The notes under the pieces: generated by a model | What the model was told of the DNA's origin: nothing | Seen by the model: the letters and a program-made list of their open reading frames with translations, nothing else | Database searches by the model: none | Shown: positions 541 through 13,493 of the stretch, in pieces | How positions within the stretch are numbered: position 1 is the first letter of the stretch | Layout of the letters: each line of letters starts with the position of its first letter | Translations under genes and position numbers: made by a program | NCBI RefSeq assembly: GCF_988243305.1 | Contig: NZ_OZ547136.1 | Length of the DNA: 64,000 nucleotides | Direction: 5' to 3' (one strand)

Positions 541-2216
541 CTCAATTTACGCAAAATACCGCCATGCCTTCTTCCCTCTGGCAATACTGGCGCGGCCTTT
601 CCGGCTGGAACTTCTATTTTCTGGTTAAGTTCGGCCTGTTGTGGGCGGGATATCTTAACTTCCATCCGCTCCTCAATCTGGTGTTTGCCGCGTTTCTGCT
701 GATGCCCATTCCGCGCTACAGCCTGCATCGCTTACGCCACTGGATTGCCCTGCCGATCGGCTTTGCTTTGTTCTGGCATGACACCTGGTTACCTGGCCCG
801 GAAAGCATAATGAGCCAGGGTTCGCAGGTGGCGGGGTTCAGTACCGATTATTTAATCGACCTTGTCACACGCTTTATTAACTGGCAGATGATTGGGGCCA
901 TTTTTGTTTTATTAGTGGCCTGGTTATTCCTGTCACAATGGATTCGCATTACCGTTTTTGTGGTTGCCATTCTGCTATGGCTGAACGTACTTACCCTGGC
1001 GGGACCAAGTTTCTCCTTGTGGCCAGCCGGTCAACCGACGACCACTGTAACAACGACGGGTGGTAACGCAGCGGCAACCGTTGCGGCGACGGGTGGCGCA
1101 CCGGTAGTGGGTGATATGCCCGCACAAACTGCACCGCCAACAACGGCGAACCTTAACGCCTGGCTGAATAATTTCTATAACGCGGAGGCGAAACGTAAAT
1201 CGACCTTCCCGTCTTCGCTGCCCGCTGATGCTCAGCCATTTGAACTACTGGTGATTAATATCTGTTCGCTTTCCTGGTCGGATATAGAAGCCGCCGGGTT
1301 GATGTCGCATCCGCTGTGGTCGCATTTCGATATTGAGTTCAAGAACTTTAACTCCGCCACCTCCTACAGTGGCCCGGCGGCGATCCGTTTACTGCGCGCC
1401 AGCTGCGGGCAGACTTCGCACACTAATCTGTATCAACCGGCAAATAATGACTGCTATCTGTTTGATAACCTGTCGAAACTGGGCTTTACCCAGCACCTGA
1501 TGATGGGACATAACGGCCAGTTCGGCGGTTTTTTGAAAGAAGTTCGCGAAAATGGCGGCATGCAGACCGAATTGATGGATCAAACAAATTTGCCGGTTAT
1601 TTTGCTGGGCTTTGATGGTTCGCCGGTTTATGACGATACCGCCGTGCTTAACCGCTGGCTGGACGTTACCGAAAAAGATAAAAACAGCCGTAGTGCCACG
1701 TTCTACAACACGCTTCCACTGCATGACGGCAACCATTATCCGGGCGTCAGCAAAACAGCGGATTACAAAGCGCGGGCGCAGAAATTCTTTGATGAACTGG
1801 ACGCCTTCTTTACTGAACTGGAGAAATCGGGTCGTAAAGTGATGGTGGTCGTGGTGCCGGAACACGGTGGCGCGCTGAAGGGCGACAGAATGCAGGTATC
1901 TGGCCTACGTGATATCCCTAGCCCGTCTATCACAGACGTCCCCGTTGGGGTGAAATTCTTCGGCATGAAGGCACCACATCAGGGGGCACCGATTGTCATC
2001 GACCAACCGAGCAGCTTCCTGGCTATCTCCGATCTGGTGGTTCGCGTTCTTGATGGCAAGATTTTCTCCGAAGACAATGTTGACTGGAAAAAACTCACCA
2101 GTGGGTTGCCACAAACAGCACCGGTCTCAGAGAACTCAAATGCAGTAGTTATTCAATACCAGGATAAACCGTACGTTCGCCTGAACGGCGGCGACTGGGT
2201 GCCTTACCCGCAATAA
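537..2216 (+). CDS. bcsG: Cellulose phosphoethanolamine transferase BcsG (559 aa)
   Basis: 559-aa ORF with N-terminal membrane helices, T/A/G/P-rich linker and C-terminal alkaline-phosphatase-like domain; length matches BcsG. Confidence 0.92.
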
Positions 2217-2302
2217 GAACGAAAAAGGCCGCAGAGTTTCACCCCTGCGGCCTGGTCCGGGCGCAAATTGCCATTACGGCAGCCTGACGCCCGCATGACA
2301 CG

Positions 2303-2410
2303 TTACTTCCGCTTATTCAGCGAGTTCACGATCAGACTGGCAAGAATGCCAGCAATGACCGGAGCCGCTAAATCATGCCAGAAGGCCATGCCCAGTTCTG
2401 CGAGCGTCAT
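2303..2410 (-). CDS. Ldr-family type I toxin, 35 aa (copy 1, Trp->Ser variant near C-terminus)
   Basis: MTLAELGMAFWHDLAAPVIAGILASLIVNSLNKRK; ATG at 2408-2410 on minus strand; matches LdrD-type peptide as remembered. Confidence 0.8.
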   Translation of the reverse strand: MTLAELGMAFWHDLAAPVIAGILASLIVNSLNKRK

Positions 2411-2457
2411 ATAGCCGCCTCTGTTGTAATGACAACGTTTCGCGGCTATTCTTGAGT

Positions 2458-2524
2458 TGTTTGGGTTCAAGATTAGCCCCCGTGATGTTGTCAGGTGCAT
2501 ACCTGCAATATGCGGGGGTTTTCT
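2458..2524 (+). ncRNA. Rdl-type antisense sRNA (copy 1), ends in GC hairpin plus U-run
   Basis: cccccg...cggggg stem followed by ttttctctc; lies antisense to the ldr 5' leader; exact 5' end not determinable from sequence. Confidence 0.45.
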
Positions 2525-2785
2525 CTCTCCAGCAACCAATGCCACTAGGGATTAAGCCCCCGCAACATTGCGCCTCACCGGAACCCTTCCGGCTTGCCGC
2601 TGATTCTACGGCCATTTTTGTTCGTCGAAATCCATCACTTCTTCACTCTGTGCTGCGCATTCCGCAGAATATTATCCGCTTGCAACCGTTGCATTTTTCT
2701 TACGAAAAAGGCCGCAGAGTTTTATCCCTGCGGCCTGATCCGGGCGCAAATTGCCATTACGGCAGCCTGACGCCCGTCTGACACG

Positions 2786-2893
2786 TTACTTCCGCTTGTT
2801 CAGCCAGTTCACGATCAGACTGGCAAGAATGCCAGCAATGACCGGAGCCGCTAAATCATGCCAGAAGGCCATGCCCAGCTCTGCGAGCGTCAT
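2786..2893 (-). CDS. Ldr-family type I toxin, 35 aa (copy 2)
   Basis: MTLAELGMAFWHDLAAPVIAGILASLIVNWLNKRK; ATG at 2891-2893 on minus strand. Confidence 0.85.
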   Translation of the reverse strand: MTLAELGMAFWHDLAAPVIAGILASLIVNWLNKRK

Positions 2894-2940
2894 ATAGCCG
2901 CCTGAGTTGTAATGACAACGTTTCGCGGCTATTCTTGTAT

Positions 2941-3007
2941 TGTTTGGATGCAAGAATGGCCCCCGTGGTGTTGTCAGGTGCATACCTGCAACGTGCGGGG
3001 GTTTTCT
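2941..3007 (+). ncRNA. Rdl-type antisense sRNA (copy 2)
   Basis: Same hairpin plus U-run terminator as copy 1, offset by one repeat period. Confidence 0.45.
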
Positions 3008-3268
3008 CTCTCCAGCAACCAATGCCACCAGGGATAAAGCCCCCGCAACATTGCGCCTCACCGGAACCTTTCCGGCTTGCCGCTGATTCTACGACTGTTT
3101 TTCTGCTCCGGAATCCGTCACTTCTTCACTCTGTGCTGTGCATTCCGCAGAATATTATCCGCTTGCAACCGTTGCATTTTTCTTACGAAAAAGGCCGCAG
3201 AGTTTTATCCCTGCGGCCTGATCCGGACGCAACTTGCCATTACGGCAGCCTGACGCCCGTCTGACACG

Positions 3269-3376
3269 TTACTTCCGCTTATTCAGCCAATTCACGATCA
3301 TGCTGGCAAGAATGCCAGCAATGACCGGAGCCGCTAAATCATGCCAGAAGGCCATGCCCAGTTCTGCGAGCGTCAT
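3269..3376 (-). CDS. ldrD: Ldr-family type I toxin, 35 aa (copy 3, closest to the K-12 LdrD sequence as I recall it)
   Basis: MTLAELGMAFWHDLAAPVIAGILASMIVNWLNKRK; ATG at 3374-3376 on minus strand. Confidence 0.85.
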   Translation of the reverse strand: MTLAELGMAFWHDLAAPVIAGILASMIVNWLNKRK

Positions 3377-3425
3377 ATAGCCGCCTGTGTTGTAATGACA
3401 ACGTTTCGCGGCTATTCTTGAGTGG

Positions 3426-3492
3426 TCTAGGTTCAAGATTAGCCCCCGTGATGTTGTCAGGTGCATACCTGCAACGTGCGGGGGTTTTCTCT
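3426..3492 (+). ncRNA. Rdl-type antisense sRNA (copy 3)
   Basis: Hairpin cccccgtgatg...cgtgcggggg followed by ttttctctctcc. Confidence 0.45.
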
Positions 3493-3851
3493 CTCCAGCA
3501 ACCAATGCCACCAGGGATTAAGCCCCCGCAACATTGCGCCTCACCGGAACCTTTCCGGCTTGCCGCTGATTTTACGATTGCTTTTTACCGTCAGCACCCG
3601 GCAATCTTCCTCATTGCGCGATGCCTTCCAGCTTAATTTCTTTATTTGCAATAGTTGCAGTTCATATCCGAGCTGACTCCAGACTGGTAGTGAAATGCGC
3701 AATTTTGTAGAATTGCGCCTCCTCGCGACCTCCCCAGTGAATCTGTTGCCTCATTTTTTACATACTGCGTATTCGACTTCTCCACCTGTTGCGCAAGAGA
3801 AACTGGGTTTATTCATTTTTGCGAGGCCGACTTCTTTCTGGACAGGACTTT

Positions 3852-5123
3852 ATGCAGCACAACACACTACCGAAACACAATCAGAAATTGCCGTTTACAC
3901 GCTACGACTTCGGCTGGGTTTTATTATGCATAGGCATGGCGATTGGTGCCGGAACCGTGCTGATGCCAGTACAAATTGGCTTGAAGGGAATTTGGGTATT
4001 TATTACCGCAGCGATCATTGCTTATCCTGCCACCTGGGTAGTGCAGGACATTTATTTAAAAACCCTTTCTGAAAGCGATTCCTGTAATGACTACACCGAT
4101 ATTATCAGTCATTACCTGGGGAAGAACTGGGGAATTTTCCTCGGGGTTATCTACTTTTTGATGATTATCCACGGGATTTTTATCTACTCTCTCTCCGTGG
4201 TTTTCGACAGCGCCTCGTACCTGAAAACCTTCGGTTTAACCGATGCCGATCTTTCACAATCTCTACTTTATAAAGTCGCCATTTTCGCCGTACTGGTGGC
4301 AATTGCGTCTGGTGGTGAACGATTACTGTTTAAGATTTCCGGGCCAATGGTGGTGGTCAAAGTAGGGATTATCGTCGTGTTCGGTTTTGCGATGATCCCG
4401 CACTGGAATTTCGCCAATATAACCGCCTTCCCGCAAGCCTCCGTCTTTTTCCGCGATGTCCTGCTTACCATTCCCTTTTGCTTCTTTTCTGCGGTATTTA
4501 TTCAGGTACTTAACCCAATGAATATTGCCTATCGTAAACGGGAAGCGGATAAAGTACTGGCAACCCGGCTCGCGCTGCGTACCCACCGAATTAGTTATAT
4601 CACGCTCATTGCGGTGATCCTGTTTTTTGCCTTTTCGTTTACCTTCTCAATTAGCCACGAAGAAGCCGTTTCTGCCTTTGAACAAAATATCTCGGCACTG
4701 GCACTGGCCGCGCAGGTGATCCCTGGGCATATCATTCATATCACCTCTACGGTGCTGAATATCTTTGCCGTACTGACCGCATTCTTTGGCATTTATCTCG
4801 GTTTCCACGAGGCCATTAAAGGCATTATTCTCAATCTGTTAAGCCGAATTATTGATACCAAGAAAATTAACTCACGCATGCTGACTCTGGCGATCTGCGC
4901 TTTTATCGTCATTACGTTGACGATTTGGGTTTCGTTTCGTGTATCGGTGCTGGTGTTCTTTCAGTTGGGAAGCCCGTTATATGGCATTGTGTCGTGCCTC
5001 ATTCCGTTTTTCCTGATCTATAAAGTCGCACAACTGGAAAAACTTCGCGGGTTTAAAGCCTGGCTGATTCTGCTGTACGGCATTTTGTTATGCTTGTCGC
5101 CACTGTTGAAGCTGATTGAGTAA
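3852..5123 (+). CDS. yhjV: Inner-membrane amino-acid transporter family protein YhjV (423 aa)
   Basis: Multi-helix membrane protein starting [34 protein letters not shown]; start taken at the internal Met to match 423 aa. Confidence 0.88.
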
Positions 5124-5152
5124 ACCGGAGCGCATGGCCCCGGTTTTGTGAG

Positions 5153-6157
5153 TTACCGCTGCGGATTTTCATCCTGATCAACAGCAAAACAAGCTACCAG
5201 TTGACCGCCGTAGTCTTTTAGCTGCGGCTGCAACTGGGTGCAGGGGCCGAAGCGCCGACGACAGCGGGCGTTAAACGCGCAGCCCGGCGGTGGATTGAGC
5301 GGGCTTGGCAGTTCACCGGTGAGCTTGATGCGCTCGCGGCGATCGTCCGGGTTCAGGCGCGGCGTCGCGGAGAGTAGCGCCTGAGTGTACGGATGACGCG
5401 GATTATTGAAGATTTGGTCCTTCGTTCCCTTCTCCACGCAGCGGCCCAGGTACATCACCATCACTTCATCGGCAATGTGCTCAACCACTGACAGGTCGTG
5501 CGAGATAAAGACATAAGACAGCCCCAACTCCTGCTGCAAATCCATCATCAGATTCAGCACCTGCGCACGCACTGAAACGTCCAGCGCAGAAACCGGTTCA
5601 TCGGCAATCACCACATCCGGGTCGAGCATCAGACCACGGGCAATGGCGATACGCTGACGCTGACCGCCGGAGAACATATGCGGATAGCGGTCGTAATGCT
5701 CGGTTTTCAGGCCGACTTTCGCCATCATCGACAGGGCTTTTTCCCGACGCTGTTCTTTGCTTAAGCTGGTATTAATAAGCAGCGGCTCTTCAAGAATTTG
5801 CCCAACTTTTTTACGCGGATTTAGCGAACCATAGGGATTCTGAAAGACGATCTGGATTTTCTGCCGACGCAACTTCTGCGCCTGCGGATCGTGCTTGAGC
5901 AGATCCTGCCCCTGGTAATACAGCTCACCACCGGTGGGCATTTCGATCATCGTCAGCAACCGACCGAGGGTCGATTTACCGCAGCCAGATTCACCTACTA
6001 CTGCCAGCGTTTTGCCACGTTCAAGGTTAAACGAAACGCCGTCCAGCGCCTTCACCAGACGTTCCGGCGCGAACATACCTTTCTTCACCGGATAATGTTT
6101 TTTCAGGTCGATAGCCTGCAACAGCGGTTGTTGCGAGGTGGCCTCATGCGTACTCAT
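5153..6157 (-). CDS. dppF: Dipeptide ABC transporter ATP-binding protein DppF
   Basis: 334 aa with Walker [13 protein letters not shown] signature SGGQRQR and oligopeptide C-terminal domain; 4-bp overlap with dppD. Confidence 0.95.
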
Positions 6158-7137
6158 AGTGTCGGCCTCCCGGCATCATCAAGTGGGTAATGGCATTTGG
6201 ACTGACGCCCGTCAGCGAGCATATTCAGCGCCGGTTCTTCAGCGCGACATCTGTCAGTGGCATAGGGGCAGCGCGGGTTAAGCAGGCAGCCGTTCGGGCG
6301 GTCATACTTGCCGGGAACAACACCTGGCAACGACGCCAGACGTTCTTTGTCCTGAGCAAATTCCGGCAGCGCACGCAGCAATGCCTGAGTATATGGATGA
6401 CGCGGCGCATGGAAGATGGCGTGGGCATCGCCCGTTTCCACCACCTGGCCTGCATACATCACGATGATTTTATGTGCCGCTTCCGCCACCAGCGCCAGGT
6501 CATGGGTAATTAACACCAGCGCCATGTTCTCTTTCTGCTGTAGCTCCAGCAGTAGTTCAATGATTTGCGCCTGAATGGTCACGTCCAGCGCGGTGGTCGG
6601 CTCATCGGCAATCAGCAGCTTTGGCCGACAGGCAATCGCCATGGCGATCATCACGCGCTGGCTCATGCCGCCGGAAAGCTGATGCGGGTAAACATCCAGA
6701 CGCGAAGCCGGATCGGGAATACCGACCTGATTCAGCAGGTCAATCGCCCGCTGACGGCGGGTACTTTTGTTGCCGCCCTGATGCACCTTAATCGCTTCCA
6801 TAATCTGGAAACCCACGGTGTAGCACGGGTTAAGGCTGGTCATCGGGTCCTGGAAGATCATCGCCACTTCGGCACCCACCAGGTTGCGGCGCTCTTTTTC
6901 TGAGATACGCTGTAAATCCTGACCGTTAAACTCCAGCTTTTCCGCCATTACGCGGCCCGGATAATCAATCAGCCCCATAATCGCCAGCGAACTGACCGAT
7001 TTACCAGAGCCGGACTCACCCACAATCCCGACCACTTCGCCCTGTTTTACGCTGTAGCTGATGCGGTCTACGGCGCGGAACGGTGCGCTTTCGTCGCCGA
7101 AATGCACCGATAATTTATCTACATTTAATAACGCCAT
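6154..7137 (-). CDS. dppD: Dipeptide ABC transporter ATP-binding protein DppD
   Basis: 327 aa with Walker A GESGSGKS and signature LSGGMSQR. Confidence 0.95.
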
Positions 7138-7147
7138 CTCGAACCTC

Positions 7148-8050
7148 TTACTGCTTCAGTTTGGGATCGAGCGCGTCACGCAGACCGTCACCCATCAGGT
7201 TAAATGCCAGCACCGTCAGCAGGATCGCCAGACCCGGGAAGGTCACGACCCACCAGGCGCTTTGCGCGAACTGCAACACGTCGGAGAGCATGGTGCCCCA
7301 CTCCGGCGTTGGCGGCTGCGCCCCCATGCCGAGGAAACCAAGAGCAGCCATATCGAGAATGGCGTTAGAGAAACCGAGCGACGCCTGAACAATCAGAGGC
7401 GCAAGGCAGTTCGGGAAGATGTTAATAAACATCTGACGCATCGCCCCGGCACCTGCCACGCGAGACGCGGTAACGTAATCGCGATTCACCTCCACCAGCA
7501 CGGCGGCGCGGGTTAAGCGCACATAGTGCGGCAAGGCAACGAAGGTCAATGCCAGCGCGGCGTTACCAATCGACGGGCCGAAAATTGCCACCAGCACCAG
7601 TGCCAACAGCAAACTTGGCAGCGCCAGCATGATATCGACCACGCGCATGATGATGTTATCGACCAGGCCTCCGAAGTAACCGGCGATCAGGCCGAGAATA
7701 ACGCCCATAATCAGCGATAACACAACTACCAGACAGCCAACCAGCAGTGACAATCGCGCACCGTACATCAGACGCGACAGCACATCACGGCCTACGTCAT
7801 CGGTGCCCAGCAAGTGCGCCATGCTGCCGCCTTCCTGCCAGGCTGGCGGGGCGAGCAGTGCATCGCGGAACTGTTCCGCCGGGTTATAGGGTGCAATCCA
7901 GTTGGCAAAGATCGCGATAAACAGCACGATGACGACGTAAACCAGCCCGACGACCGCGCCTTTGTTGCGTTTAAAATAGTGCCAGAACTCCTGTAACGGG
8001 GTCATCGGCACCGGTGCGCTAATCACTTTATTTTCAGTAACCTGTGACAT
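7148..8050 (-). CDS. dppC: Dipeptide ABC transporter permease DppC
   Basis: 300-aa integral membrane permease in operon position. Confidence 0.95.
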
Positions 8051-9229: not shown

Positions 9230-10837
9230 TTATTCGATAGAGACGTTTTCGAAGTGATGTTTGCCTAATGGATCAACCACATAGCCTTTAACTTCTTTGC
9301 GTACCGGTTCAAACACGGTGGAGTGAGCGATGATCAGTGCCGGAGCCTGATCGTGCATCACCACCTGCGCTTGCTTGTACAGTTCAACGCGTTTGTTATG
9401 GTCGTCGGTAGCACGCGCCGGTTGAATCAGATCTTCAAACGGTTTGTAGCACCATTTTGAGTAGTTGGAGCCTTGTTCAGAGGCGGCGCAGCTGAACAGG
9501 GTGGCGAAGAAGTTATCCGGATCCCCGTTGTCGCCAGTCCAGCCCATCATTACCGTCTGATGCTCGCCATCTTTCGCACGCTTGAGATACTCACCCCATT
9601 CGTAGGTGACAATTTTGGCCTGCACGCCCACTTTCGCCCAGTCTGCCTGAATCATCTCTGCCATGCGGCGAGCATTCGGGTTATACGGACGTTGTACCGG
9701 CATTGCCCACAGGTCGATGGAGAAGCCTTTTTCCAGGCCCGCTTCTTTCAGCAAGGCTTTCGCTTTTTCGGGATCGTAGGTGTAGTCCTGAACGTCGTCG
9801 TTATAGCCCCACATGGTTGGCGGGATCAGGTTTTTCGCTGCCACGCCCGCGCCCTGATAAACCGCTTTGATGATCGCGTCTTTGTTCACCGCGTAGGTCA
9901 GAGCCTGGCGAACTTTCACATCATCGAGTGGTTTTTTCTGCACGTTATATGAAAGATAGCCGACGTTCAGCCCCGGCATTTCCATCAGGTTGATGGATTT
10001 ATCCTGCTTCATGCGAGCGATGTCTGCCGGGTTCGGGTACGGCATCACCTGGCATTCATTCTTCTGCAATTTCGCGTAACGCACGGAAGCATCAGGGGTA
10101 ATAGAGAAAACCAGCGTATCGATCTGCGGTTTGGTGCCCCAGTAGCCATCAAACGCTTTGTAGCGGATACGGGAATCTTTTTGGTACTGCTGTAACTGGA
10201 ACGGACCGGTGCCGATTGGGTTGAGGTCCAGTTTTTCCGGTGTACCGGCTTTCATCATCGCGTCAGCATATTCTTTTGACAGAATAGAGGCGAAGTCCAT
10301 TGCCAGATCCGCGAGGAACGGCGCTTCCGGGCGAGTCAGCACGAACTGAACGGTGTTATCGTCCACCTTTTTCACTTCGCTGATCAGCTCCGGCAAGCCC
10401 ATGCCTTCGAAGTATTCGTAGCTGCCGCCAGAGACTTTATGGTACGGGTTTTGCGCGTTTTTCTGACGATCGAACGAGAACACCACGTCATCGGCGTTCA
10501 GTTCGCGCGTCGGTTTGAATTCTTTGTTGTCGTGCCACTTCACACCTTTACGCAGATGGAAGGTATAGGTTTTTCCGTCTTCGCTGACTTCCCACTTTTC
10601 AGCGAGGCCCGGGATTACTTCGGTGGTGCCGATTTTAAATTCAACCAGGCGGTTATAAAGCGGCACGGAAGAGGCGTCATAGGTGGTACCGGAGGTAAAC
10701 AGCTGCGGGTTAAACCCTTCCGGAGATCCTTCTGAGCAATAAACCAGAGTTTTAGCCTGAACACTTGCTGCGACGGTCATAGCCACCAGGCTGAGACCAA
10801 GCTTCAGCATCCCTGACTTTTTCAAGGAAATACGCAT
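9230..10837 (-). CDS. dppA: Periplasmic dipeptide-binding protein DppA (535 aa, signal peptide)
   Basis: MRISLKKSGMLKLGLSLVAMTVAASVQA signal peptide followed by family-5 solute-binding domain. Confidence 0.95.
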   Translation of the reverse strand: MRISLKKSGMLKLGLSLVAMTVAASVQAKTLVYCSEGSPEGFNPQLFTSGTTYDASSVPLYNRLVEFKIGTTEVIPGLAEKWEVSEDGKTYTFHLRKGVKWHDNKEFKPTRELNADDVVFSFDRQKNAQNPYHKVSGGSYEYFEGMGLPELISEVKKVDDNTVQFVLTRPEAPFLADLAMDFASILSKEYADAMMKAGTPEKLDLNPIGTGPFQLQQYQKDSRIRYKAFDGYWGTKPQIDTLVFSITPDASVRYAKLQKNECQVMPYPNPADIARMKQDKSINLMEMPGLNVGYLSYNVQKKPLDDVKVRQALTYAVNKDAIIKAVYQGAGVAAKNLIPPTMWGYNDDVQDYTYDPEKAKALLKEAGLEKGFSIDLWAMPVQRPYNPNARRMAEMIQADWAKVGVQAKIVTYEWGEYLKRAKDGEHQTVMMGWTGDNGDPDNFFATLFSCAASEQGSNYSKWCYKPFEDLIQPARATDDHNKRVELYKQAQVVMHDQAPALIIAHSTVFEPVRKEVKGYVVDPLGKHHFENVSIE

Positions 10838-11060
10838 TATTCTGCTCCAATTGTGATGTTTGTTGTTTTAACCCTTTGCAGTGGGTTGTCGCTGCCTGAC
10901 CTTTTTTGTTTTTTGCCCGGTCGGGTCAACGTTATGAGGTGGGGATGCCGTACTAATTAACATCAGTGTAACAGTGCGGATCCTCCATAAAATGCCCCTC
11001 GTGACCTACAATCTGTCAACAGAATGTGAAAACGTCAATACAGCCAACCGGGATTTACAC
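10838..11060 (-). promoter_or_regulatory. dppA leader and promoter region (long 5' UTR, known GcvB sRNA target in E. coli)
   Basis: Position upstream of dppA plus established knowledge; transcription start not pinned from sequence. Confidence 0.4.
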
Positions 11061-11596
11061 CAACGGTGAGAATCCACAAACAAAGATTAAAAAAACTTCA
11101 AACAGCTATTTGCAGCAGAGAAATTTGTGCTACTCCAACATGACCAGAACAATCAGCTTAATATTTAGCAACAATTGGTGATTAAGTTTTATGCATTTTG
11201 TGAAAAAAATCTGAGGAAAAGGTGGATATCTGAGCGATTAATACCATGAACGCTAAAACGCACAGCGGAAAATGCCAGCGCCAGTCATAAGTAACGCAAA
11301 AAAAGATTTAAGCAAATATAAAAAAAGACAATGGTTTCTGTCACAAATCCGTTAATGGATAGTGAGATATGGGGCGCAAATTTGGCAGGGAAATGTGTGG
11401 TGTGTTGCCGTTTAGATCGGATAAGACGGATACGCTGTATCCCACAATGAGTGCGGTGCCGAATTTGGTCGGTGCCAGAGGATTACTCGCCACTTCGTGG
11501 CTCGCCCTGCGGGCCGTTGCTGGCGCAACGTTCTCTCGCTTCGCTCGAGTCGAACCTCCCTGCCCCCGGAGGTTCTCATCCTCATAGGCTACAAAT

Positions 11597-11624
11597 GCAA
11601 AAAAGCCTGCTCGTTGAGCAGGCT
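11597..11624 (-). terminator. Rho-independent terminator downstream of proK
   Basis: Hairpin agcctgctcgttgagcaggct flanked by A-run on plus strand (U-run on minus). Confidence 0.75.
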
Positions 11625-11633
11625 TTTCGAATT

Positions 11634-11710
<77 letters not shown>

Positions 11711-11801
11711 AATGCGGGGCGCATCTTACTGCGCAGATACGCCCTCGTCAATCCCTTAATAGCAAAATGCCTTTTGATCGGCGAGAAAGTCAGCAGGCCT
11801 C

Positions 11802-13493
11802 TTAGTTAGCCGCCGCCTCTCTTGCCTGCGGGATGTGGCACCAGTTGTTGTTTTCGTTAATTCCACCATCCGGTGAAGTATAGCCAAGACAACCCATGAT
11901 GGTGTCGTACAGCTCTACATGACGGCGTGGCACTTTCATGTCGGCTTCTTTTTTCAGCTGCGCAAATGCCTGCGCATTGGCCGGATTTTCTAGATATTTA
12001 TCTGACATCCAGACCATCATCGGCACACGGAACTGCTCCGGCGGTGCCAGTTCACGCGGTGTGCCGTGCAGGTGCTCGCGTTCATTAATTGACTCACCGT
12101 GGTCAGCTGCGTAGAACACAATCGCTTTCTTATCGCGAACCTGATCAATCACGCTGGAGATAAAGTGATCCACATAGGTCACCGAGTTGTCATAGGAGTT
12201 GATCATCTGCGCTTTGGTACAGCCGCTATCAACACCAATACATTCCGGCTTCCACTGCGCAAAGCTGCGCGGGTAACGCTGGGTGTAGTTAAAGTGCGAA
12301 CCTTTGGTATGCAAAATGATCAGATGCTTGCCATCCGGGTTGCGCCCCAGCGATTGCTGCATTTCGTCTACCAGCAACATATCATCTACCGGCTTGCCAC
12401 GGTTACGTGGCTCCGCACCAATCTGCTCACGATAAGCAATGTTGTCTGCCATCGTGTTGCTGTAGAACCACATTTCGCTTTGCATAGCGTAGAGATCAGA
12501 ACTGAATCCTAACTGCTTCAGCACCGCGAAAATGTTCTGTTCTTTTAATGTGCGCTGCGGATTATCTTCCGCGCCCCCCTGACGTACAAACATGCAACGC
12601 AGTGAGAGTTTAGTTGCGGTATCACAGGAGTAACCACGGAACGCTGCCAGATTTTTCTCCTGGGCCAGCTTCGGCGTGGTATTACGCTCATAGCCAAAAA
12701 TGCCCATATGGTCCCAACGCGTGGTTTCACCGATGATAAACACGACATAAGTGTCATCAACGTTTTGCGGTGCCTGATAAGTGAATTTCTTCGCCGGGTT
12801 AAGCAATGAATTATTATCGGAAGATTCATCGACCCGCGCCCAGGCATACAGCCCCAACGCAGAAAGCCAGTTTGATGGCAGATAAGAGTTCGCTACGACA
12901 CCGCCATAGCTGGGCAAATCAACACCGGTCGCCCTCTCCACTTTCTTCTGCTGGATATCCAGCAAACGAATCGGTGCCCAAACCATAATACCCGCCAGTA
13001 CGACGACCGCCAGGCTGCGAATACGCTGCCCTGGGGTTCGCAGTTGTCGGAGCAAGGTGTAGCGACAGCGGTTATTCCAGATAAGGATAAGAGGCAATGC
13101 GCTAACGGCGATTAACCAGAGAATAAAGTTCAGACCAACAACTTCTTTTGACAGGTCGATATCGGTGGTCATGACGGAAGCGATGATGCCATAACCAATG
13201 ACCACATTAAGGAAGGTCATGTAATAGCTGGCACCTGCGGAAAAGAGCACCACCAGCGACGCCAGAATACGCCAGCTACGGCGGCCAAACAGCGAAAGAA
13301 GACGTAGTAAAAAGAAGGTCACCAGTACGGTGGCGGCCAGTTCAACAACAGCAGAAATGCCTTTCCAGACGGTAAAATCGTGCGCATAGCTGCCGAAGCG
13401 GCGGTAAAAAACCGCGCCATTCATAAAAAGGCCAATATAGATTGCAAGCAAAAAGCTCAGCTTCTGCTGTGTAATCGATTTGATGTATCTCAT
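11802..13493 (-). CDS. eptB: Kdo2-lipid A phosphoethanolamine transferase EptB (563 aa)
   Basis: N-terminal membrane helices plus sulfatase-like domain; start taken at [21 protein letters not shown]. Confidence 0.9.

Follow-up and report, generated by a model that had tools for sequence, protein, structure and literature searches.

The 3′ ends of tRNA genes are classic integration sites, and at the attL/attR junctions of integrative elements that target tRNA genes the 3′ part of the tRNA, from the T loop onwards, is found as a direct repeat. The repeated units at tyrT are co-transcribed and processed. The rtT RNA (rttR) of the tyrT-tyrV operon was reportedly the subject of work by Bosl and Kersten in 1991. 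Elements of this kind, the tRNA-linked repeats (TLRs), came to light in 1978 (Egan and Landy) and were catalogued by Rudd in 1999, with 22 elements at ten loci of Escherichia coli K-12; a TLR is defined by an 18-19 bp 3′ end that is identical to the upstream tRNA or rRNA (PMC8144298). An earlier claim that rtT acts in the stringent response was withdrawn, and no function is known for TLRs (PMC8144298). Ribosomal RNA operons also carry TLRs: rrA, rrB and rrF are located downstream of the 5S rRNA in rrnA, rrnB and rrnD, their RNAs are made by read-through of the terminator T1, and the ends of these RNAs were attributed to RNase E acting at the repeated sequence (PMC8144298). For proK, which encodes tRNA-Pro(CGG), the transcript is reported to be monocistronic, about 113 nt long, and to end at T1, and RNase E cleaves the precursor immediately after CCA, in the AU-rich trailer (PMC5291269).

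In the window, by which we mean the whole stretch of DNA analysed (64,000 nt), proK was the only tRNA gene called by ARAGORN. A repeat finder revealed a 25-nt direct repeat with 23/25 identity and a start-to-start spacing of 168 nt, in which the copy at 11628-11652 corresponds to the last 19 nt of proK and the 6-nt trailer AATTCG, and the copy at 11460-11484 has GG for AT at the two mismatched positions (CTGGCACCGACCA vs CTATCACCGACCA). The chance expectation for 25-mers with at most two mismatches is 3e-7, and no further match to the repeat with at most four mismatches was found on either strand of the 64-kb window. The observation of the earlier note that the proK 3′ end and its six flanking nucleotides recur close to the gene is therefore real and far above chance. 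Also real is the T-arm-like stretch that it had seen further along, with the minus-strand letters GGAGGTTCGACTC, a match to the proK T-arm 5′ half; the features had been recognized correctly, and only their positions were off, by a few bases. An additional, inverted T-arm-like copy, absent from the earlier note, was found next to this stretch. The positions of all features are given in Table 1.

Table 1. Features at and downstream of proK (positions in the window)
Feature	Position	Strand	Basis
proK promoter-like site, TTGACG, 17-nt spacer, TAAGAT	11723-11751	-	consensus scan; by itself no proof of function
proK, tRNA-Pro(CGG), source of the repeated 3′ end	11634-11710	-	ARAGORN; Rfam tRNA model, 60.7 bits
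proK 3′ trailer AAUUCG, AU-rich, directly after CCA	11628-11633	-	read from sequence
Intrinsic terminator T1 of proK, AAAAGCCUGCUC/GAGCAGGCUUUU hairpin followed by a U run	11599-11627	-	inverted repeat
tRNA-linked repeat of the RtT family (orthologous to K-12 rpK); one complete 168-bp repeat unit	11466-11601	-	Rfam RF00391
Inverted T-arm-like segment GAGGAUGAGAACCUCCG, provides the 5′ strands of P1 and P2	11567-11583	-	15/17 complementary to the proK T arm
Copy of the proK T-arm 5′ half (GGAGGUUCGA and CUC), 3′ strand of P2	11547-11559	-	12/13 match
Non-tRNA core, about 62 nt, four small hairpins	11485-11546	-	minimum-energy fold
Core hairpins P3; P4; P5; P6	11533-11549; 11515-11530; 11504-11514; 11489-11501	-	
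Copy of the proK 3′ end (AAUCCUCUGGCACCGACCA) and trailer AAUUCG; AUCCUC is the 3′ strand of P1	11460-11484	-	
Decayed REP-like palindrome directly after the unit	11414-11449	-	allele alignments

The sequence of tRNA-Pro(CGG) was invariant across the 40 Enterobacteriaceae loci compared. The promoter-like site upstream of the gene fits the short proK 5′ leader mapped previously (PMC5291269). Between proK and the repeat element lies T1, the stem of which is a perfect 12-nt inverted repeat with a 3-nt loop. A simple terminator scan missed T1, and the assignment was made from the inverted repeat together with the published mapping.

To identify the element, we scanned positions 10700-11900 with the Rfam models. 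The model of the RtT RNA (RF00391) matched 11466-11601 over its full length (model positions 1-130 of 130) with 98.7 bits and E=1.6e-20, compared with a gathering score of 45, and the two fragments described in the earlier note turned out to be the 3′ end and an internal part of this single element. The Rfam RtT model also matched the TLRs of the lysT-valT operon and of serX in K-12, and weakly those of the arg cluster; therefore, RtT and TLR are one family. The element at proK has the properties of a TLR: it lies 33 nt downstream of the gene on the same strand, it has a period of 168 bp, where tandem units of about 150-180 bp are typical, and its 3′ end reproduces that of proK at 17/19 positions in the window allele (19/19 in the K-12-type allele), followed by the trailer at 6/6 positions. 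The K-12 locus aligns with the window and contains the ortholog of our element. The coordinates of proK in an older K-12 genome release differ from those in NC_000913.3 by what we take to be an offset of 1,977 bp. The strain table in PMC8144298 (Front Microbiol 2021) lists delta(rpK) as 3706471-3706638, i.e. 168 bp, in the coordinates of that older release. After correction for the offset, the deleted fragment occupies positions 1049-1216 of the K-12 locus in our set (L005), directly beside proK, and coincides with the Rfam match there (1049-1182, 101 bits). Since the 168-bp deletion adjoins proK and coincides with the K-12 Rfam match, the element is the known proK TLR. We conclude, with a probability of about 0.9, that the fragment noticed beside proK is the 3′ end of an RtT-family TLR linked to this gene, called rpK in E. 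coli K-12.

The element is already catalogued, under the names rpK in EcoGene, RtT in Rfam and 'RtT sRNA' in RefSeq, and little changes overall in what is known of it. E. coli ST2747 (NZ_CP007394.1) contains the window with 100% identity, and RefSeq places an 'RtT sRNA' there at exactly the position of the element, and the same annotation is found at proK in other E. coli genomes. In the curated K-12 record, rttR at tyrT is the only element of this kind that is annotated. The earlier note had named explanation of the match by a known regulatory element as an outcome that would speak against its own reading, and a known element (RF00391, a TLR) indeed explains the match.

Comparison of E. coli strains revealed that the proK locus is polymorphic in copy number. 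Three aligned alleles differ by entire 168-bp units: a full unit is missing from strain W60, one full and one partial unit are present in K-12 and YJ3, and UTAK-13 has two full units, which are annotated as two tandem RtT copies. Tandem Repeats Finder reported no repeat at the K-12 locus, which contains only about 1.6 copies; the tandem nature of the repeat is shown by the allele alignment. Among 5426 complete E. coli genomes, the TLR core was found in 2667, in 2955 places and in at most four places per genome, and in most genomes it is 100% identical over 69 nt. Together, these data show that the 168-bp unit at proK is repeated in tandem, has the tRNA 3′ end and its copy as boundaries, and is present in 0 to 4 copies. 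The element is dispensable, given that about half of E. coli genomes lack it, and the natural alleles with zero, one or two copies constitute ready material for tests of TLR function.

The window carries a minority allele, the 3′ flank of which is shared by 279 of the 5426 complete genomes (about 5%). Its element occupies the same site directly downstream of proK as K-12 rpK and has the same 168-bp unit, the same core and the same Rfam match. It differs from rpK in having GG for AT in the 3′ end (17/19 vs 19/19 identity to the tRNA) and CCUAU, not CUCAU, in the 5′ strand. The repeat of K-12-type alleles also includes the trailer and the terminator, and where the window has the decayed REP-like palindrome, these alleles have a second terminator along with a partial second unit and a pair of intact REPs, all of which the window lacks. 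The intact REP pair of K-12-type strains is recognized by Rfam as naRNA4 (RF02564, 69 bits; L005 876-955, L001 2849-2928 and L002 2681-2760), whereas no naRNA4/REP match was obtained for positions 10700-11900 of the window. Owing to the two differences in the 19-nt 3′ end and to the lack of a second terminator behind the unit, the window allele deviates from the textbook form of a TLR.

On the minus strand, the order of the parts is as follows: proK, the trailer AAUUCG, T1 (the 12-bp hairpin and the U run), a 15-nt linker, GAGGAUGAGAACCUCCG, GGGGCAG, GGAGGUUCGA, the GC-rich core of about 62 nt, AAUCCUCUGGCACCGACCA (T-arm 3′ half, acceptor 3′ strand and CCA), and again AAUUCG. With respect to the tRNA, the core is placed in the T loop, between GGUUCGA and AUCC. 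The predicted fold of the element consists of a closing helix P1 (GAGGAU/AUCCUC) around five hairpins, with an energy of -55.6 kcal/mol and z = -3.58. We evaluated this minimum-energy structure of the window sequence on our own alignment of 109 units, in which the row for the K-12 locus (L005) is partly misaligned, without material effect on the counts. In these 109 units, 88% of the cells were paired, as compared with 32-41% in slid controls; 13 pairs were changed on both sides, and the covariation score of 0.169 was reached by none of 500 shuffles. Helix P4 was paired in 99.8% of the cells, and in P6 four of the five pairs were changed on both sides. The RNA of the element folds as a closed multi-hairpin structure that is supported by covariation, and the 109-unit alignment shows the conserved secondary structure characteristic of the RtT family. 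Some of the covariation in P1 and P2 follows the type of the tRNA (pair 65:82 in P2, for instance, is U-A or C-G depending on the linked tRNA) and could be templated by the tRNA instead of selected. The three outermost pairs of the window structure (GCC/GGC), which the GG variant enables, were considered as a further conserved helix. They are paired in only 32% of the units, and so the outer helix is not a feature of the family.

An Arg-rich ORF of 57 aa, with its start codon at the AUG of AUGAGGAUGAGAACC within the TLR, is located at 11412-11585 on the minus strand. It is in frame with the 29-aa 'protamine-like' tpr that is annotated inside rttR at tyrT, with a similarity of 6/12. We considered it as a tpr-like gene and rejected this assignment: the similarity to K-12 Tpr is weak, and the changes in the hairpins are compensatory, which indicates a constraint at the level of RNA and not of protein. 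The ORF is probably a by-product of the GC-rich hairpins and not a gene.

A pattern scan of one genome per species yielded 182 matches at 120 loci, of which four loci (L030, L032, L049 and L058), non-enterobacterial and without tRNA flanks, were judged to be chance matches. The nearest upstream tRNA was tRNA-Tyr for 97 of the 182 matches, tRNA-Pro(CGG) for 50, tRNA-Pro(UGG) for eight and tRNA-Arg(ACG) for one, and the element was found between proK and dppA in many genera of Enterobacteriaceae. When the last 19 nt of 151 units were compared with tRNA 3′ ends, the mean number of mismatches was 0-1.7 to the unit's own tRNA and 3-8 to the other tRNAs; the single Arg unit had no mismatch to its own tRNA. 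A variant of the tRNA-Tyr acceptor (CGCCACCA) was carried by 10/10 of the linked TLRs, which indicates concerted evolution of the TLR ends with the tRNA. Where Pro(CGG) units had an exact tRNA end, the repetition extended into the trailer and the terminator, with 28/30 identity. The co-evolution of TLR ends with the tRNA and the copy-number polymorphism of the proK TLR (0 to 4) are by-products of this analysis.

The GG variant of the proK TLR 3′ end (CUGGCACCGACCA; 11467-11478 in the window) recurs in at least ten species from several genera, namely, besides the window, at the loci L014, L024, L025, L060, L070, L095, L107, L123 and L124. Despite its presence in the TLRs, 40/40 tRNA-Pro(CGG) genes keep CUAUCACCGACCA. 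At another group of loci, a tRNA-Tyr gene appears 'interrupted' by about 63 nt in the T loop: these are chimeras that begin with the full tRNA-Tyr 5′ part, switch to a TLR core at the T loop and end with the normal tRNA-Tyr 3′ end. The 5′ parts match tRNA-Tyr at 67/67 positions in Citrobacter sp. MGH106 (L101, core at 3106) and at 64/67 in Leclercia adecarboxylata (L100, 2800), and further chimeras were found in Trabulsiella (L036:1114 and L112:1981) and Kosakonia sacchari (L096). ARAGORN called no tRNA in the tRNA-Tyr::core chimeras. In Oceanobacter kriegii (L021, 1223-1382), a TLR with a shorter core that lacks P6 lies beside tRNA-Arg(ACG) and has a 3′ end identical to it at 19/19 positions; thus, the family extends beyond Enterobacterales.

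From the pattern of alleles we infer that the tRNA 3′ end may exchange sequence with its downstream copies, by gene conversion and unequal homologous recombination, and that units may thereby be created, deleted and homogenized. The tRNA-Tyr::core chimeras, with the 67/67 match in Citrobacter, are the kind of product that would be expected from such exchanges.

A close relative is rtT at tyrT, which belongs to the same family and has the same inverted T-arm-like segment, a T-arm 5′ half, a homologous core and a tRNA 3′ end, and which is also arranged in tandem, with a 178-bp unit. The tRNA-derived parts of rtT match tRNA-Tyr, whereas those of the proK unit match tRNA-Pro, and the RF00391 scores are 133-137 bits at tyrT and 99-101 bits at proK. 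The tyrT units have no preceding intrinsic terminator, whereas the proK unit is situated behind an efficient one. The layout of the rRNA-linked elements rrA, rrB and rrF (gene, T1, TLR with a copied gene 3′ end, T2) is that of the K-12-type proK loci. They differ from the proK TLR in having another core, in binding Hfq and CsrA and in being linked to rRNA, and the window allele has no T2. The 3′ end of the TLR repeats the sequence at which RNase E cuts after the CCA of proK. By analogy with rtT at tyrT and with rrA/B/F, a transcript that read through T1 would probably be cleaved by RNase E at the repeated end and yield a discrete, CCA-ended RNA of about 135 nt, since the TLR 3′ end copies the RNase E site of proK. 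Because the proK transcript is reported to be monocistronic, about 113 nt long and terminated at T1, the proK TLR may be transcribed rarely or never.

A more far-reaching interpretation of the family is that TLRs are not passive debris but self-maintaining, tRNA-templated elements, and that the GG variant is selected on the TLR RNA itself. Under such a scheme, the core in its T-loop position would have on its flanks three segments that the linked tRNA (Tyr, Pro-CGG, Pro-UGG or Arg) continually rewrites, and it could recombine into intact tRNA genes, as illustrated by the Citrobacter and Leclercia chimeras. The GG variant lengthens the closing helix in the window and persists in at least ten species although the tRNA is invariant. 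If this interpretation were true, the TLR RNA might serve, for example, as a CCA-ended mimic of the tRNA acceptor or as a decoy for RNase E. We consider this interpretation unlikely.

The assignment of the element to the TLR family has to be weighed against three other explanations of the repeat, two of which had been put forward in the earlier note. One is that the element is a decayed tRNA duplicate, i.e. a second copy of proK that arose by tandem duplication, lost its 5′ part, acquired junk in the T loop and is now a dying pseudogene. The tRNA-derived pieces that it presupposes are indeed there in the correct order (both T-arm halves, the acceptor 3′ strand, CCA and the trailer), and other genera provide examples of a TLR core attached to a complete tRNA-Tyr 5′ part (67/67 in Citrobacter L101, 64/67 in Leclercia L100). 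However, no tRNA cloverleaf with D and anticodon arms was detected at 11460-11601, either by ARAGORN, one of the programs that the earlier note had recommended, or by the Rfam tRNA model with E up to 10. The supposed junk is, moreover, the most conserved part of the element, with invariant columns and compensatory changes in more than 100 units from many genera and at four types of tRNA. Since the core is common to units linked to different tRNAs, independent decay is impossible as its source. The name of a tRNA-derived duplicate fits the element only loosely: pieces of it come from a tRNA, but a conserved non-tRNA core with covarying hairpins is no part of a tRNA pseudogene, and this explanation is in our view very improbable.

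The position of the element in the long proK-dppA intergenic region, on the dppA strand, together with the lack of a second terminator between the element and dppA in the window allele, would agree with a role in cis in the regulation of dppA, as a promoter-distal operator or as a barrier to transcription. Such a role is harder to reconcile with the absence of a full unit from about half of E. coli genomes and the presence of two to four units in others, with the distance of about 620 bp between the end of the element and the dppA start codon, and with the association of the family with tRNA and rRNA genes, not with dppA. We regard it as highly improbable. A promoter-like site (GTGACA, 18-nt spacer, TATATT) was observed at 11315-11344 on the minus strand, in the AT-rich interval that separates the TLR from dppA; it is a consensus match only, at 10/12 positions.

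The earlier note had suggested that the proK-dppA region be compared across genomes for an island between the repeats. We searched 5422 E. coli genomes with a query in which the eptB-proK end was joined to the unique sequence upstream of dppA. In 4811 genomes, proK and the dppA upstream region were within about 950 bp of each other, and in 611 (about 11%) they were farther apart. Seven of these 611 larger-gap loci were inspected, and neither an integrase nor an island was present between proK and dppA in any of the seven; all seven large insertions were IS elements located in the downstream REPs, which belonged either to the IS3/IS1397 family (L128, L131 and L003) or to IS621 (L129, L130 and L132). 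In other E. coli strains, the REPs that directly follow the proK TLR have repeatedly been targeted by IS elements, and the IS in L129 comes with a rearrangement that separates dppA from the locus. In other species, dppA starts 780-1351 bp after proK in 20 of the 22 loci with at least 1.5 kb of downstream sequence; in the remaining two, proK is followed by a LacI-type regulator or by coaA, and no integrase was found.

The third explanation, and the one that the earlier note had emphasized, is that an element with a tyrosine integrase once entered the genome at the 3′ part of proK, or was excised there, and left the short direct repeat as a scar; the repeat, which spans the T loop to the tRNA 3′ end and beyond, resembles attachment sites of the T-loop type, but the 143 bp between its copies are a conserved, structured member of a known RNA family and not a remnant of variable or foreign DNA, the element is amplified in tandem with a 168-bp period, the same architecture is found at tRNA-Tyr, tRNA-Pro(UGG), tRNA-Arg, the lysT-valT operon and serX, rRNA operons carry TLRs too (PMC8144298), and the inserts in E. 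coli were IS elements without an integrase in 7/7 cases while dppA is adjacent in 20/22 loci of other species, which leaves this explanation with next to no credibility. We rejected it because of the conserved RtT/TLR element, its 168-bp tandem arrangement, its occurrence in many genera and the restriction of the seven inspected insertions to IS elements. Unlike attL/attR, the repeats at proK are free of integrase and cargo, enclose an RNA-family element and are iterated in tandem. In Enterobacteriaceae, a short direct repeat of a tRNA 3′ end beside the gene is consequently insufficient for calling an integrase scar; TLRs give the same signature and should first be masked with Rfam RF00391.

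In two of the E. coli loci with larger gaps (L129 and L130), the lpfABCDE operon for long polar fimbria is inserted between yhjX and eptB (locus positions 1910-7355). This insertion is on the opposite side of eptB from proK and is not located at the tRNA gene.
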